Source: a virus (lineage: Duplodnaviria > Heunggongvirae > Uroviricota > Caudoviricetes). Taken from it: DNA of 64,000 nt. This document shows, piece by piece, positions 22,204 through 57,675 of this stretch. The notes under the pieces are model-generated. The model worked only from the letters and a program-made list of their open reading frames with translations. It was not told the origin of the DNA and did not search any database. The position numbers were made by a program, and so were the translations under genes. Location: positions 186,635 to 250,634 of the IMG/VR virus record IMGVR_UViG_3300031133_000383; one strand, 5' to 3'. Each line of letters opens with the position of its first letter. Position 1 is the stretch's first letter.

Positions 22204-23364
22204 TTATATTTTCTTGATTATTTTTTGATTGTTTTTATTTAATACATATTCCATCATTCCAGATTCAGCATATTTTTTACTTTCATTTTCGCCTACAACA
22301 ATAATATCAGGAATTCCTTTATTTTTCCAATTTCTTATTTTTTTTCCTAAAGATTCAGAACTTTCATCTAGCTTACATGATTTTTTATCAAATTTTGAAT
22401 GAAGTAGCTTTGCGTAGTCGGATGATTTTTCAGAAACGGGTATGATTACTGATTTTATTGGATGCAAAAAATCTGGTATATCTTTCCCAAAAGATTCCAA
22501 CAAAATACCAATCATTCTTTCTAGAGATCCAAGAACAGCATGATGCAATATAATAGGACGTTGCATTTTATTATCAGAATCAACATATTCAAGTCCAAAT
22601 CTTTCTGGTAATACATAGTCCAACTGTATAACACCCAATTGCCAAGAACGACCTAGTTTATCTTCCACCTGAAGCTCTAGTTTTGGACCATAAAAAGCCC
22701 CCTCTCCCGGCAATTCTTGAAAATCAAGGTTGTTCATGGCACAAGCTTCACGCAAGGCGGCTTCAGCCTTATCCCAAAGACTATCTTCACCAAACCTTTT
22801 TTCTGGTCTGAGAGCAATCGCATATTTTATTTTTTTGAATCCTAGTTCTTCATAGGCTTTCTTGCTCATATTGATATATTGATTAACTGAATTAATGAGA
22901 TTTTCTGGATTAACAAACACATGACTGTCATCCTGACAAAATTGTCGCTGTCTGAACAATACCTGCAAAGCTCCTGATGCTTCATTACGATACACTTCAC
23001 CAAATTCAAAAATGGGTAAAGGTAATTCTTTATAACTACGTTTTTCGGATTGATAAATTAAAATGTGATTTGGACAACTCATAGGACGCAGTGCATAATT
23101 ACTAGCTTCTGATGAATTCAAGAAAAACATGTTTTCTTTATATTTTTCCATATGGCCTGATTGTTCAAATAAATTAGCTACCACAATTGAAGGACTTTTA
23201 ACTTCAAGATAACCATTATCTTCATGATGTTTTCTAATAAAAGATTTTAGATTTTCATAAAGCTTTAATCCTTCTGGTTTCCAATAAACAACACCTGCAC
23301 TTTCACTTAACATGAAAAGATTCATTTCATTTGCCACTTGCATATATCTTTTTTCTTCATTCAT
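22204..23364 (-). CDS. thrS: Threonyl-tRNA synthetase, catalytic plus anticodon-binding domains only (no TGS or editing N-terminus)
   Basis: Class II motifs RPMSCPNHILIYQSEKRSYKELPLPIFEFGEVYRNEASGALQVLFRQRQFCQDDSHVF resemble E. coli ThrRS LKPMNCPGHVQIF...RVRGFTQDDAHIF. ATG 23364 lies 8 nt after AGGAG. The track start at 23469 reads through the attenuator hairpin. Confidence 0.85.
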   Translation of the reverse strand: MNEEKRYMQVANEMNLFMLSESAGVVYWKPEGLKLYENLKSFIRKHHEDNGYLEVKSPSIVVANLFEQSGHMEKYKENMFFLNSSEASNYALRPMSCPNHILIYQSEKRSYKELPLPIFEFGEVYRNEASGALQVLFRQRQFCQDDSHVFVNPENLINSVNQYINMSKKAYEELGFKKIKYAIALRPEKRFGEDSLWDKAEAALREACAMNNLDFQELPGEGAFYGPKLELQVEDKLGRSWQLGVIQLDYVLPERFGLEYVDSDNKMQRPIILHHAVLGSLERMIGILLESFGKDIPDFLHPIKSVIIPVSEKSSDYAKLLHSKFDKKSCKLDESSESLGKKIRNWKNKGIPDIIVVGENESKKYAESGMMEYVLNKNNQKIIKKI

Positions 23365-23411
23365 TTTATTTCTCCTAGATAATTGATTATATTTTATTAA
23401 AATTAAGGCAT

Positions 23412-23437
23412 AAAAAAACCCAGCATTTAGCTGGGTT
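23412..23437 (-). terminator. Attenuator terminator of the thrS leader
   Basis: Minus-strand RNA AACCCAGC-UAAAU-GCUGGGUU followed by U-run (7 consecutive U in total), 47 nt upstream of the thrS ATG. Confidence 0.75.
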
Positions 23438-23459
23438 CTTGGTGTGCAGGTATCAATTA

Positions 23460-23534
23460 TTAACGACAATACCTCACCAGCCCAGCTTCGATCTGAGTTG
23501 TTGTGGTAGTTGTTGTATTCTTGACTATGTGCAT
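23460..23534 (-). CDS. thrS leader peptide MHIVKNTTTTTTTQIEAGLVRYCR (24 codons, 7 consecutive Thr codons)
   Basis: ATG 23534 lies 8 nt after AAGGA. Thr codons ACA ACA ACU ACC ACA ACA ACU map to 23516-23496. Tandem stops UAA UAA. The last codons form the left arm of the antiterminator. Confidence 0.75.
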   Translation of the reverse strand: MHIVKNTTTTTTTQIEAGLVRYCR

Positions 23535-23553: not shown

Positions 23554-23582
23554 ATTTTAATTTGAATTCTAAAATAAGTCAA
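23554..23582 (-). promoter_or_regulatory. Putative sigma70 promoter of the thrS leader
   Basis: Minus strand: TTGACT (rc 23577-23582), 17-nt spacer, TAAAAT (rc 23554-23559). This predicts a very short 5' UTR, so the TSS is uncertain. Confidence 0.5.
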
Positions 23583-23657
23583 GTGTTTTGAATGTATAGA
23601 GATCTCATTGATTTTAGTTTTTGATTTGTTAACCTATTAAAAGAACAGGAGATGTAT

Positions 23658-24179
23658 ATGCCAGACAAACCACTACTTTGTTTTACTGAGTTTAATCCAG
23701 ATTTTATTCAAAAAGCTGATACAATTGTTAAAAAATATTGGTCTGGTGATTTTGATCCTGATCCTTATCAAGAAGGATTTATTGCTGTTCCAAATTTATT
23801 TTCATTTTATTTCTGTGCTGATGAAGGTTATAATAATTTAAAACCCGAAGTTATCTATAAGACTAGGTTTCCTTACTTATCCGAAGACGAAAATGAAGAC
23901 AATTTAGATTTTGATAGTTCAAAAATACATTGTGCTATTTTTTTTCAATGCTCCAATAATGTAAATGTTTCATTGGCTAATTTATTTGAAACTTTACTTC
24001 CAAACTACATCTTTGAAGTGGATGATGGAGCTTTTGTAGTGTCTCCTGATGAGAACCAGCATATTACTTTATTGGAAATTATGTCTTTGCTGACGGCAAG
24101 AGGCTTTATTTATGACAAAGAAAATTGTGACTTTAAAAAGTTTTTTAAAGATTTAGTGGTAATCAAAAGACCTGTATAA
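23658..24179 (+). CDS. Hypothetical protein
   Basis: ATG 23658 lies 6 nt after AGGAG. ATG 23652 abuts the SD. Confidence 0.65.
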   Translation: MPDKPLLCFTEFNPDFIQKADTIVKKYWSGDFDPDPYQEGFIAVPNLFSFYFCADEGYNNLKPEVIYKTRFPYLSEDENEDNLDFDSSKIHCAIFFQCSNNVNVSLANLFETLLPNYIFEVDDGAFVVSPDENQHITLLEIMSLLTARGFIYDKENCDFKKFFKDLVVIKRPV

Positions 24180-28247: not shown

Positions 28248-28326
28248 CGGAGTGTAGGTTAGCCCGGCTTATACCGCCTGCTTTGGGAGCAGGATGTCGC
28301 AGGTTCGAATCCTGCCACTCCGACCA
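28248..28326 (+). tRNA. tRNA-Pro (anticodon UGG), CCA encoded
   Basis: Acceptor CGGAGTG/CACTCCG. Anticodon arm CCTGC-TTTGGGA-GCAGG. T-arm GCAGG-TTCGAAT-CCTGC. Ends in ACCA. The D-arm is atypical (3 bp, long loop). Confidence 0.8.
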
Positions 28327-28339
28327 ATTTAATAATAAT

Positions 28340-28417
28340 TGACAGGTAGCTCAGTGGGGAGAGCGGCTCCAAATTTTCGGGAGACGGTCGGGGGTTCAAA
28401 TCCTTCCTTGTCAACCA
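28340..28417 (+). tRNA. tRNA with atypical 9-nt anticodon loop (AAAUUUUCG); isotype undetermined (Lys-UUU or Glu-UUC reading possible)
   Basis: Acceptor TGACAGG/CTTGTCA. D-arm GCTC-AGTGGGGA-GAGC. T-arm GGGGG-TTCAAAT-CCTTC. ACCA encoded. The anticodon stem pairs only as CTCC/GGAG, which leaves 9 loop nucleotides. Confidence 0.6.
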
Positions 28418-28426
28418 TCTTTATAT

Positions 28427-28514
28427 GGAAAAGTGGCAGAGCGGTTGAATGCAACGGTCTTGAAAACCGTCGGGTGTAAAAGCCTCGTGAGTTCGAATCT
28501 CACCTTTTCCGCCA
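28427..28514 (+). tRNA. tRNA-Ser (anticodon UGA), long variable arm, CCA encoded
   Basis: Acceptor GGAAAAG/CTTTTCC. Anticodon arm ACGGT-CTTGAAA-ACCGT. Variable arm present. T-arm GTGAG-TTCGAAT-CTCAC. Ends in GCCA. Confidence 0.88.
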
Positions 28515-44096: not shown

Positions 44097-46200
<2,104 letters not shown>

Positions 46201-56222: not shown

Positions 56223-56251
56223 TTGACCGAAAGTGCATGATTTGCTATACT
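56223..56251 (+). promoter_or_regulatory. Putative tyrS leader promoter
   Basis: TTGACC (56223-56228), 17-nt spacer containing TGc, TATACT (56246-56251). Confidence 0.6.
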
Positions 56252-56284
56252 TTCATAAAATCAGACGCATTAAGGAATACCTAC

Positions 56285-56332
56285 ATGAAAGCTACATTTC
56301 ACTTCCAGAAGTCATTTACTGTTCGATATTGA
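56285..56332 (+). CDS. tyrS upstream ORF MKATFHFQKSFTVRY (15 codons; last sense codon is Tyr UAU)
   Basis: ATG lies 8 nt after AAGGA. The stop UGA (56330-56332) is 2 nt upstream of the anti-SD segment. Confidence 0.45.
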   Translation: MKATFHFQKSFTVRY

Positions 56333-56334
56333 AC

Positions 56335-56410
56335 TTTCTCCATACTATTGCTTTTTATAGGCAATACATCTTTTTCTGAAAAATCCAACTTCAAAACTTC
56401 TATGGAGAAA
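56335..56410 (+). promoter_or_regulatory. SD-sequestering long-range helix in the tyrS leader
   Basis: TTTCTCCATA (56335-56344) is the perfect reverse complement of TATGGAGAAA (56401-56410), which contains the tyrS GGAG. The helix encloses hairpin TATTGC-N9-GCAATA (56346-56366), followed by CATCTTTTTCT. Confidence 0.55.
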
Positions 56411-56415
56411 TCGTA

Positions 56416-57675
56416 ATGCATATTTTTATTAAAGAACTAAAAGACCGTAATCTTATTTCACAAATGACTGATGAAAATAAAATTTCAATTTTGTTAGACA
56501 AGGGTGTTTCGTTATACTGTGGTTTTGATCCAACGGCTGATTCATTACATGTGGGTAGTTTATTACCACTAATCACCATGCTTCGTTTTAAGCGGGCTGG
56601 TCATCGTGTATTCCCCTTGATTGGTGGAGCAACAGGTATGATTGGTGATCCTAGCTTCAAAGCTCAGGAACGTAGTCTTAATGATGTTGATACTGTAAAT
56701 CGGTTTAAATCAGGTATTGCTGCCCAAATTAAAGCAATTCTTGGGGATGTAGAACTGGTTGACAATCATGATTGGACAGCAAACCTTTCAGTTATTGATT
56801 TTTTGCGAGAAGTAGGGAAACATTTCTCAGTGAACAGTATGTTGAATAAAGAATCTGTACGCAGTCGCTTGGATCGTGATGATCAGGGTATTTCTTTTAC
56901 TGAATTCTCATACCAGTTACTGCAGTCCATGGATTTTCATCATTTGTTTAAATCAAAAGGGTGCCAACTGCAGTTGGGCGGTAGCGATCAGTGGGGAAAC
57001 ATTACGGCAGGCATTGATTTGATCCATCGTAAGGAAGGCAATGATGCTGTGGCAACTGGTTTGACTATGCCATTGTTGGTAAAATCGGACGGTACTAAAT
57101 TTGGTAAAAGTGAAAGTGGTGCAGTATGGCTAGCTCCTGATAAAACTTCGGCTTTTGACTTCTTCCAGTTTTGGTTAAAAGTGGCCGATGCTGATATTCC
57201 AAAGTTTTTCAAGATGCTTTCCTTTAGAAGTATTGAAGATATTGATTGTATCCTCGAAGCTGATAAGAATCGTGTAAAACCAGTAGCTCAACAATTGCTT
57301 GCCGAAGAATTAACTGCTTTGATTCATGGTCAAGACGCATTGGATGCAGTTCTTCGAAATAATCAGGCTTTGTTTGACAACAACTTTGACAGCTTACATG
57401 AAAACGATTTTCACATGTTGGTAAAAAACGGTATGAAGTTGATGAAAACACAGGAAAATAACTTATTAGAACTCCTAGTCGCTTCTGGTTTGTCTAAATC
57501 AAAACGTCAAGGTAGAGAGTTTATTCAAAATGGAGCAGTACAGATTAATGGACGAAAAGTCAAAATTGATGAAAATGACATGAACTCTGCCATTATTGAA
57601 GACTTTAAATTTGGTCAGTTTGCTGTACTGCAACGAGGAAAACGAGAATTTATTCTCATTGAAAAGCCCGCTTGA
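56416..57675 (+). CDS. tyrS: Tyrosyl-tRNA synthetase (bacterial type, with C-terminal S4-like domain)
   Basis: HIGH motif (DSLHVGSLLPL). KMSKS motif (KFGKS). GGSDQWGNI. C-terminal RQGREFIQNGAVQINGRKV. Confidence 0.92.
   Translation: MHIFIKELKDRNLISQMTDENKISILLDKGVSLYCGFDPTADSLHVGSLLPLITMLRFKRAGHRVFPLIGGATGMIGDPSFKAQERSLNDVDTVNRFKSGIAAQIKAILGDVELVDNHDWTANLSVIDFLREVGKHFSVNSMLNKESVRSRLDRDDQGISFTEFSYQLLQSMDFHHLFKSKGCQLQLGGSDQWGNITAGIDLIHRKEGNDAVATGLTMPLLVKSDGTKFGKSESGAVWLAPDKTSAFDFFQFWLKVADADIPKFFKMLSFRSIEDIDCILEADKNRVKPVAQQLLAEELTALIHGQDALDAVLRNNQALFDNNFDSLHENDFHMLVKNGMKLMKTQENNLLELLVASGLSKSKRQGREFIQNGAVQINGRKVKIDENDMNSAIIEDFKFGQFAVLQRGKREFILIEKPA

Follow-up and report, generated by a model that had tools for sequence, protein, structure and literature searches.

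A 64,000-nucleotide stretch of the IMG/VR virus record IMGVR_UViG_3300031133_000383 (Caudoviricetes; positions 186,635 to 250,634 of that record, hereafter the window) encodes a threonyl-tRNA synthetase (ThrRS) of 386 amino acids (aa) which consists of a catalytic core and a tRNA-binding domain and nothing more, as in the minimalist ThrRS definition of PMC4267643. We think it probable that this short ThrRS is a functional, editing-free phage enzyme of predicted synthetase activity, and that its gene (thrS) is controlled by a leader-peptide attenuator. Phage aminoacyl-tRNA synthetases (aaRSs) are known, and so are editing-free ThrRSs, each separately. Our reading of the literature turned up no phage editing-free ThrRS, no domain-level account of one, and no leader-peptide attenuator of thrS; nor did we find described a natural bacterial-type ThrRS without its N-terminal domains (a ΔN-ThrRS) that is combined with a Thr-leader attenuator across a large viral family.

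Domain content and fold of the short ThrRS

A first-pass annotation made from the sequence alone had called a 386-aa open reading frame (ORF) with a proper ribosome-binding site, and had proposed that it begins at the class II catalytic core and lacks both the TGS (N1) and the editing (N2) domains. Both proposals are borne out by the results that follow. A Shine-Dalgarno sequence stands before the assigned start codon (Table 1), GGAG-type sites stand at the equivalent position before the short thrS genes of related loci, and the homologs in a 28-member family alignment all start near MNEEKRYM. A mechanical ORF list had offered a 421-aa version from a TTG at position 23469; we rejected this version because it overlaps both the terminator and the last part of the leader ORF described below, and because the extension is neither conserved nor supported by homologs.

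Pfam annotation finds only tRNA-synt_2b, on residues 84-291 (E 1.8e-43), and HGTP_anticodon (PF03129), on residues 305-363 (E 3.1e-11, profile positions 2-65 of 94); as there is no match for either TGS or tRNA_SAD in the 386-aa protein, the canonical N1 plus N2 architecture is absent. The protein exceeds the equivalog cut-off of the NCBIfam thrS model TIGR00418 (400.4 bits against 383.65), with an alignment that spans profile positions 175-536 of 565. When aligned to solved structures, it matches residues 244-601 of the 642-residue full-length E. coli ThrRS (1qf6) and runs end-to-end with the truncated crystallization constructs 1evk and 4hwo, which places its first residue at approximately E. 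coli residue 238, in the linker joining the editing domain to the catalytic core, and its coverage at approximately 238-625, the N1/N2 region being left uncovered.

What remains of the enzyme is well preserved. The three zinc ligands are C97 (E. coli C334), H148 (H385), and H274 (H511); these ligands, the motif-2 arginine R126, the motif-3 arginine R283, D146, and the Y225-G-P-K228 loop all align to E. coli and are invariant in the 28 family members, whose alignment contains 96 invariant columns, all catalytic residues among them. An AlphaFold model built on the same alignment has a mean pLDDT (predicted local distance difference test) of 91 and a pTM (predicted template modeling score) of 0.89, and superimposes on truncated E. 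coli ThrRS (1evk/4hwo) with TMq 0.92, TMt 0.88, and a root-mean-square deviation of about 2 Å. The predicted C terminus is a beta hairpin (residues 372-385), and the terminal helix of the anticodon-binding domain is missing, family-wide, from both the alignment and the model.

The closest known counterpart is therefore a laboratory construct, E. coli ΔN-ThrRS (residues 242-642; 1evk/1evl), which has the same domain content and the same N-terminal boundary as the window protein at 38% identity, but which retains the terminal helix of the anticodon-binding domain. The construct of Dock-Bregeon et al. (work of 2000) reportedly charges tRNA-Thr normally and also makes Ser-tRNA-Thr. Unlike this construct, the window protein occurs in nature as a conserved gene product with its own regulation.

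Relatives of the short ThrRS were sought in a collection of 5.8 billion proteins. The best 120 relatives considered are 56-100% identical and all 359-422 aa long; the same short architecture recurs in more than 110 related protein clusters (56-85% identity); and pairwise dN/dS among 6 family genes does not exceed about 0.3 (dS is saturated), a sign of purifying selection. The short ThrRS is a maintained protein, not debris. Together with P0121 and P0122, the family forms a cohesive clade that has no full-length relative above about 45% identity; the sequences closest to it from outside are bacterial-type and about 40-45% identical. A scan of cellular genomes, in which 185,579 bacterial and archaeal species were represented by one genome each, found the family a single time, on a contig of 10 kb from a Variovorax assembly. 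This sole member from a cellular genome (Variovorax sp. GT1P44 NODE_39, locus L009, 10,097 bp) lies on a GC-rich contig of an isolate assembly, and here too the short thrS is preceded by a Thr-run leader (ending in AIATTTTRSPPGVWSRAR and a stop codon) and a terminator. This contig gives a hint that the GC-rich branch of the family has a betaproteobacterial host.

A Thr-codon leader upstream of thrS

The 287 nucleotides (nt) upstream of thrS hold a promoter, a 24-codon leader ORF, and an intrinsic terminator (Table 1). The promoter is a consensus match of the sigma-70 type, and TTGAC-type -35 boxes are found at the same relative position in related loci L004, L006, L094, and L095. The leader ORF contains an unbroken run of Thr codons, and is the sole intergenic mini-ORF in the window with a homopolymeric codon run. 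The terminator stem, whose GC core is extended by A-U pairs, is followed by a T-run; RNAfold gives -18.7 kcal/mol for a 45-nt segment containing this hairpin, and retains the hairpin in the minimum-energy fold of the entire leader. A competing antiterminator would form when AGCUGGGCUGGUGAGGUAU, which sits in the final third of the leader ORF, 8 nt past the Thr run, pairs downstream; it would sequester the 5′ arm of the terminator, and has a predicted energy of -23.7 kcal/mol when the terminator 3′ arm is withheld.

As folded, the upstream region has the predicted geometry of a ribosome-mediated attenuator, and the attenuator is convincing because of comparative evidence. In all eight family loci compared (56-83% protein identity, two of them GC-rich contigs), the short thrS gene is preceded by a leader that carries 4-8 Thr codons in a row and by a terminator with which an antiterminator competes; leaders from related loci include MNKFVFNTTTTTTLLKAGLVGYCLE, MFNFIAITTTTTTTCQNTGQVVTCLR, and MYFSFATTTTTTTTALRPVAERTRT, each followed by a stop codon. 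The terminator and antiterminator stems of the two GC-rich loci have wholly different sequences but the same architecture. For a control we took 80 ordinary thrS loci among the matches listed when metagenome contigs were scanned with the family alignment, a scan whose patterns are common to all ThrRSs and whose listed matches were ordinary full-length thrS genes at 38-43% identity, which made it unsuited to finding the family itself. The control comprises 77 full-length genes and no short ones, and an upstream Thr-run mini-ORF was present in only one of the 80. The link that the first-pass annotation had drawn between thrS expression and the charging of Thr-tRNA through an attenuator is thus supported.

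Neither a T-box nor a known riboswitch was found upstream of thrS at Rfam gathering thresholds, where there were weak sub-threshold matches only. The leader shares with the thr operon leader (RF00506) and the pheST leader a codon-run ORF, a terminator, and an antiterminator which overlaps the ORF and excludes the terminator, but it is not a member of RF00506, is phage-borne, and precedes thrS. Attenuation by a leader peptide is familiar for an aaRS gene from pheST; thrS itself is regulated translationally in E. coli and by a T-box in Bacillus.

The window also encodes seryl- and tyrosyl-tRNA synthetases (SerRS and TyrRS), and no comparable codon-run leader precedes either gene; there is no room for one before SerRS. 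The TyrRS leader region (56230-56415, plus strand) has TTGACC-17 nt-TATACT, a mini-ORF (MKATFHFQKSFTVRY and a stop codon), and a hairpin TATTGCC...GGCAATA followed by T-rich sequence. It contains no Tyr-codon run, and may therefore be another kind of regulator.

Missing domains, rival explanations, and the carrier element

An upstream exon or a frameshifted N-terminal region would have restored a full-length enzyme, a possibility that the first-pass annotation had itself considered unlikely. None was found: the 287 nt upstream of thrS are taken up by regulatory elements and the next gene lies on the opposite strand, so that no space is left for an N-terminal part. When the N-terminal 235 aa of 25 full-length ThrRSs were used as tblastn queries against the window and 12 related loci, they matched only at the start of the short thrS. 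Nor could TGS, tRNA_SAD, AlaX-type, or other editing families be found in the 63 window ORFs of at least 130 aa, and no editing family appears among the Pfam matches of genes called within 10 kb on each side of the short thrS on 7 related contigs.

Other large phages carry either half of the enzyme. The complete 636-kb phage genome LR756504.1 encodes a distinct 386-aa ThrRS of independent origin, 42% identical to that of the window and with the same start boundary (MEDHRIIGRKMNLF...). Its gene (L013 2411-3830) lies directly between tRNA-Thr(GGU) and tRNA-Thr(UGU) genes, immediately after the former and before tRNA-Asn and the latter, in a block of nine tRNAs. No N2-type domain was matched in this complete genome at E <= 0.01. 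No leader-peptide attenuator was found at the LR756504.1 short thrS, and its regulatory design therefore differs. Conversely, an annotated 235-aa "threonyl-tRNA synthetase" of the Agrobacterium jumbo phage Atu_ph07 (AUZ95444.1) is an N-terminal editing-type domain alone, and no ThrRS catalytic domain was found in the 490-kb Atu_ph07 genome; this protein, the other half of the enzyme compared with the window case, may act for the phage as an editing factor in trans. Both ThrRS halves therefore circulate separately among large phages. The Sinorhizobium jumbo phage Phosso, unlike the window, encodes a full-length ThrRS of 640 aa. The matches inspected among ThrRSs of GenBank "phages", those of the Vibrio and Acinetobacter records, proved to be host-like thrS-infC regions with a full-length gene, and are not precedents.

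To place the short ThrRSs among all others, we made an exhaustive search of 1.84 billion cluster representatives and classified the 150 nearest clusters by their N-terminal region: 31 are short, 64 have the full N-terminal region, and about 42 have a reduced N-terminal extension of 50-200 residues. Outside the GC-rich branch of the family, the nearest neighbor of most short representatives is full-length or lacks N1, which argues that the domains were lost several times. Some "short" metagenomic ThrRS calls may be gene-call fragments.

Several points weigh against a functional, editing-free ThrRS under attenuator control. The anticodon-binding domain is reduced both in its profile match (positions 2-65 of 94) and by the loss of its terminal helix, and tRNA recognition could therefore be altered. 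The Rfam Thr_leader model (RF00506) is not reached (16.3 bits against 55, E 2.2), a simple consensus terminator scan did not report the attenuator hairpin, and the regulatory model is built on predicted folds and on conservation among loci. Within a genome that measures 600 kb or more, our searches for editing domains around the gene cover 64 kb, and a second full-length thrS, a free-standing editing protein, or tRNA-Thr genes are possible beyond the window.

The same coverage leaves room for a split enzyme, in which a separate phage-encoded deacylase (a free-standing N2/AlaX-like or DTD-like protein) would edit in trans, as in the crenarchaeal pair of ThrRS-cat and ThrRS-ed. The Aeropyrum ThrRS-1 (3a31) is an archaeal precedent for a catalytic-only gene whose editing comes from another polypeptide, and the free-standing domain of Atu_ph07, in a phage with no catalytic ThrRS, shows that such domains exist in jumbo phages. 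For the crenarchaeal enzyme, however, the editing partner has been identified, whereas none was found for the window ThrRS in the ORFs, loci, and neighborhoods searched, or for the short ThrRS of LR756504.1 in a genome that is complete. We regard a split enzyme as unlikely. The window protein does not belong to the archaeal ThrRS-cat lineage: 3a31 is archaeal-type, and scores 172 bits and TMq 0.82 to it.

Still less likely is a specialized paralog, which would resist an inhibitor or host shut-off, deliberately raise Ser-for-Thr mistranslation, or disturb the autoregulation of host thrS. The first-pass annotation had suggested a back-up enzyme resistant to shut-off or inhibitors, or deliberately altered fidelity, roles which we treat as speculative. 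Duplicated aaRSs with roles in resistance or stress are known (PMC9437257), as is the obafluorin immunity gene obaO (bioRxiv 10.1101/704981); the family is only about 40% identical to any cellular ThrRS, and would therefore be old and specialized; and there are family-specific changes beside conserved sites, for example H275 in place of E. coli R512. Against this, the residues contacting threonine, zinc, and ATP are conserved, and the known inhibitor positions Y225/G226/K228 and L252 are the same as E. coli Y462/G463/K465 and L489, so that the sequence bears no sign of resistance, while an attenuator that reads Thr codons fits the logic of a supply enzyme. The idea that ObaO is an N-terminally truncated ThrRS is not confirmed by the preprint, and the comparison was dropped.

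A third possibility is that the gene is cellular, the family contigs representing an unrecognized reduced bacterium with the short ThrRS as its only one, free of editing as are the enzymes of some parasites. The contigs that carry the family measure 0.3, 0.6, 1.04, 1.54, and 1.85 Mb, and are syntenic with the window around thrS and a NAD-dependent ligase. The three longest, L004 (JGI Ga0247725_1000001, 1,539,155 bp), L006 (Ga0308423_1259934, 1,851,360 bp), and L007 (Ga0310127_000002, 1,042,066 bp), exceed the largest described phage genome of 735 kb (PMC7162821), and may be genuine genomes of giant phages, or else concatemers, chimeras, or something different. Their size, the bacterial style of the expression signals, and the presence of several aaRS and tRNA genes would all suit a bacterium. 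But nearly all genes on the family contigs lack Pfam families, as do about 80% of the window ORFs, which cannot be assigned (about 12 of the 63 have a Pfam match); there are no rRNA or ribosomal-protein genes within the 64-kb window; there are homologs in jumbo phages and phage-family matches; and the short ThrRS family has a single match in the species genomes scanned. We think a cellular origin very improbable.

The clearest tie of the element to cultured phages is a 778-aa window protein of unknown function which matches a PHROG family (Table 1); hypothetical proteins encoded by XacN1 and Xoo-sp13, two jumbo phages of Xanthomonas, share 45% identity with it. Other PHROG matches in the window are of the head-maturation-protease type, together with a weak portal match. 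Megablast found no near-identical phage in GenBank, and a scan of IMG/VR with peptides of the window ThrRS gave no match. We conclude that the carrier of thrS is a huge-phage-like element and not a cell.

The reading of thrS as a functionless, decaying remnant of a captured host gene is effectively refuted: truncated genes are common in phage genomes and some short metagenomic calls are probably fragments, but this gene has its own promoter, leader, and ribosome-binding site, and the family has kept its length, its invariant columns, its low dN/dS, and a confidently predicted fold.

The window has a G+C content of about 30%, and its other products include a ligase and a polynucleotide kinase/phosphatase. 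The genomes of huge phages can hold as many as 15 aaRS genes along with tRNAs (PMC7162821), and the window resembles them in encoding full-length SerRS and TyrRS and three tRNAs; among these synthetases, ThrRS alone is domain-reduced. In the tRNA called Lys(UUU), the anticodon loop has 9 nt, compared with a normal 7 nt (AUUUUGG) in its counterpart at L006 2001-2076. On distant family contigs, ankyrin-repeat, DUF4116, and ADP-ribosylglycohydrolase genes and an arginyl-tRNA synthetase (ArgRS) gene are found near the short thrS (L095 6051-6818 and 13415-15094; DUF4116 and ADP_ribosyl_GH in L094/L095); gene content of this kind is commoner in giant viruses or intracellular bacteria.

Table 1. Positions of the short thrS gene, its predicted control elements, and other features (window coordinates unless a locus or accession is named)
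Feature	Position	Strand	Remarks and basis
Short thrS coding sequence	22204..23364	minus	386 aa; stop 22204-22206; ORF list and sequence
thrS start codon ATG	23364-23362	minus	read from sequence
Shine-Dalgarno AGGAGA	23371..23376	minus	6-nt spacer to thrS ATG
Sigma-70-type promoter TTGACT-17 nt-TAAAAT	23554..23582	minus	10/12 matches; promoter scan, consensus match only
Leader ORF MHIVKNTTTTTTTQIEAGLVRYCR and stop	23460..23534	minus	24 codons, own AAGGA site
Run of 7 consecutive Thr codons in leader ORF	23516-23496	minus	sequence
Intrinsic terminator, stem AAGAACCCAGC / GCUGGGUUUUU	23412..23440	minus	RNAfold
Terminator core CCCAGC-uaaau-GCUGGG, extended by A-U pairs	23435-23419	minus	sequence and RNAfold
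T-run (7 T) after terminator stem	23418-23412	minus	sequence
Antiterminator, AGCUGGGCUGGUGAGGUAU (from 23487) pairing with AUACCUG...CCAAGAACCCAGCU	23429..23487	minus	RNAfold
Next upstream gene	23652..24179	plus	divergent from thrS
778-aa protein	4883-7219	minus	PHROG match, phrog_33734 at E 2e-153
Pro-Lys-Ser tRNA cluster	28248-28514		three tRNAs
tRNA called Lys(UUU)	28340-28417	plus	9-nt anticodon loop AAAUUUUCG
SerRS, full-length	44106-45389	plus	Seryl_tRNA_N and class II core; domain matches
TyrRS, full-length	56416-57675	plus	class I core and S4-like C-terminal domain; domain matches
AUZ95444.1, editing-type domain	L097 2327-3034 = MF403008.1 483864-484571		Atu_ph07

Proposed function and significance

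The intact active site, the tRNA-binding domain, the logic of the attenuator, and the tRNA-Thr genes flanking the short thrS of LR756504.1 together suggest that the short ThrRS charges tRNA-Thr. We infer likewise that thrS expression would rise as charged tRNA-Thr falls, that the enzyme would mis-activate serine as minimalist ThrRSs do (PMC4267643) and so, as the first-pass annotation had expected, might mischarge tRNA-Thr with it, and that both a source of proofreading and a benefit to the phage may be proposed along the following lines.

The enzyme, a ThrRS of bacterial type, would have permanently lost the TGS domain, the domain that edits Ser-tRNA-Thr, and the last helix of the anticodon-binding domain. 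In the proposed scheme, thrS has a promoter of its own, and its transcription must pass a ribosome-mediated attenuator. With ample charged tRNA-Thr, the ribosome would pass the 7 Thr codons, reach the leader stop codon, and cover the 5′ arm of the antiterminator; the terminator would then form, and only a little thrS mRNA would result. With charged tRNA-Thr in short supply, the ribosome would stall at the Thr run, the antiterminator would form, and thrS would be transcribed. By this logic, the enzyme would be a demand-driven supplement to the supply of Thr-tRNA-Thr during infection. Fidelity without an editing site might depend on zinc-based rejection of valine, on intrinsic discrimination against serine, and possibly on pre-transfer editing in the active site; Ser-tRNA-Thr might be cleared in trans by the full-length host ThrRS or by an unseen free-standing factor; or, alternatively, a modest rate of Ser-for-Thr errors might be tolerated over one infection cycle.

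Two known systems bear on this scheme. Yeast mitochondrial MST1 has no editing domain, mis-activates serine, and uses pre-transfer editing (PMC4267643). Its structures (3ugq, 3uh0) resemble the window ThrRS in fold (TMq 0.90) at about 33% identity, but it scores 220 bits against the window protein where bacterial ThrRSs score 298-321 bits, which argues that the editing domain was lost independently of MST1; and MST1 serves an organelle that makes few proteins and has no attenuator, whereas the window ThrRS belongs to a virus of bacteria. In Anabaena, a second, stress-induced ThrRS with impaired proofreading (T2) makes Ser-tRNA-Thr, which is cleared in trans by T1 (PMC4787780), and this pair could serve as a working model for rescue of the phage enzyme by the host. 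T2 retains a degenerate editing domain and is regulated by zinc; the window ThrRS has no such domain, and its proposed trigger is the supply of Thr-tRNA-Thr.

We wish to go one step further, although we hold the following proposal tentatively and think it unlikely as a whole: that a clade of very large phages, possibly exceeding 1 Mb, runs a charging homeostat for one amino acid, which couples a Thr-codon attenuator to a ThrRS that has deliberately shed its proofreading, and in which the host ThrRS acts as trans-editor (perhaps in heterodimers) or Ser-for-Thr mistranslation is accepted or even beneficial.

If the proposal were true, loss of editing would be an adaptive viral trait that arose repeatedly in independent phage lineages, rather than a tolerated defect. 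ThrRS editing is usually held to be indispensable outside organelles, the rate of serine mis-activation being harmful to cells. A large, conserved viral family which matches a laboratory editing-deletion mutant almost residue for residue is a natural test system, and opens the questions of how much proofreading a short-lived translation program needs, whether host synthetases proofread for viral ones, and whether viruses tune the fidelity of translation. The Thr-leader attenuator would mean that a phage can sense the supply of charged tRNA directly and answer with its own synthetase; and thrS with its attenuator, a compact module of about 1.4 kb, would provide concrete evidence, open to easy tests in E. 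coli, that huge phages take over translation, as has been proposed.

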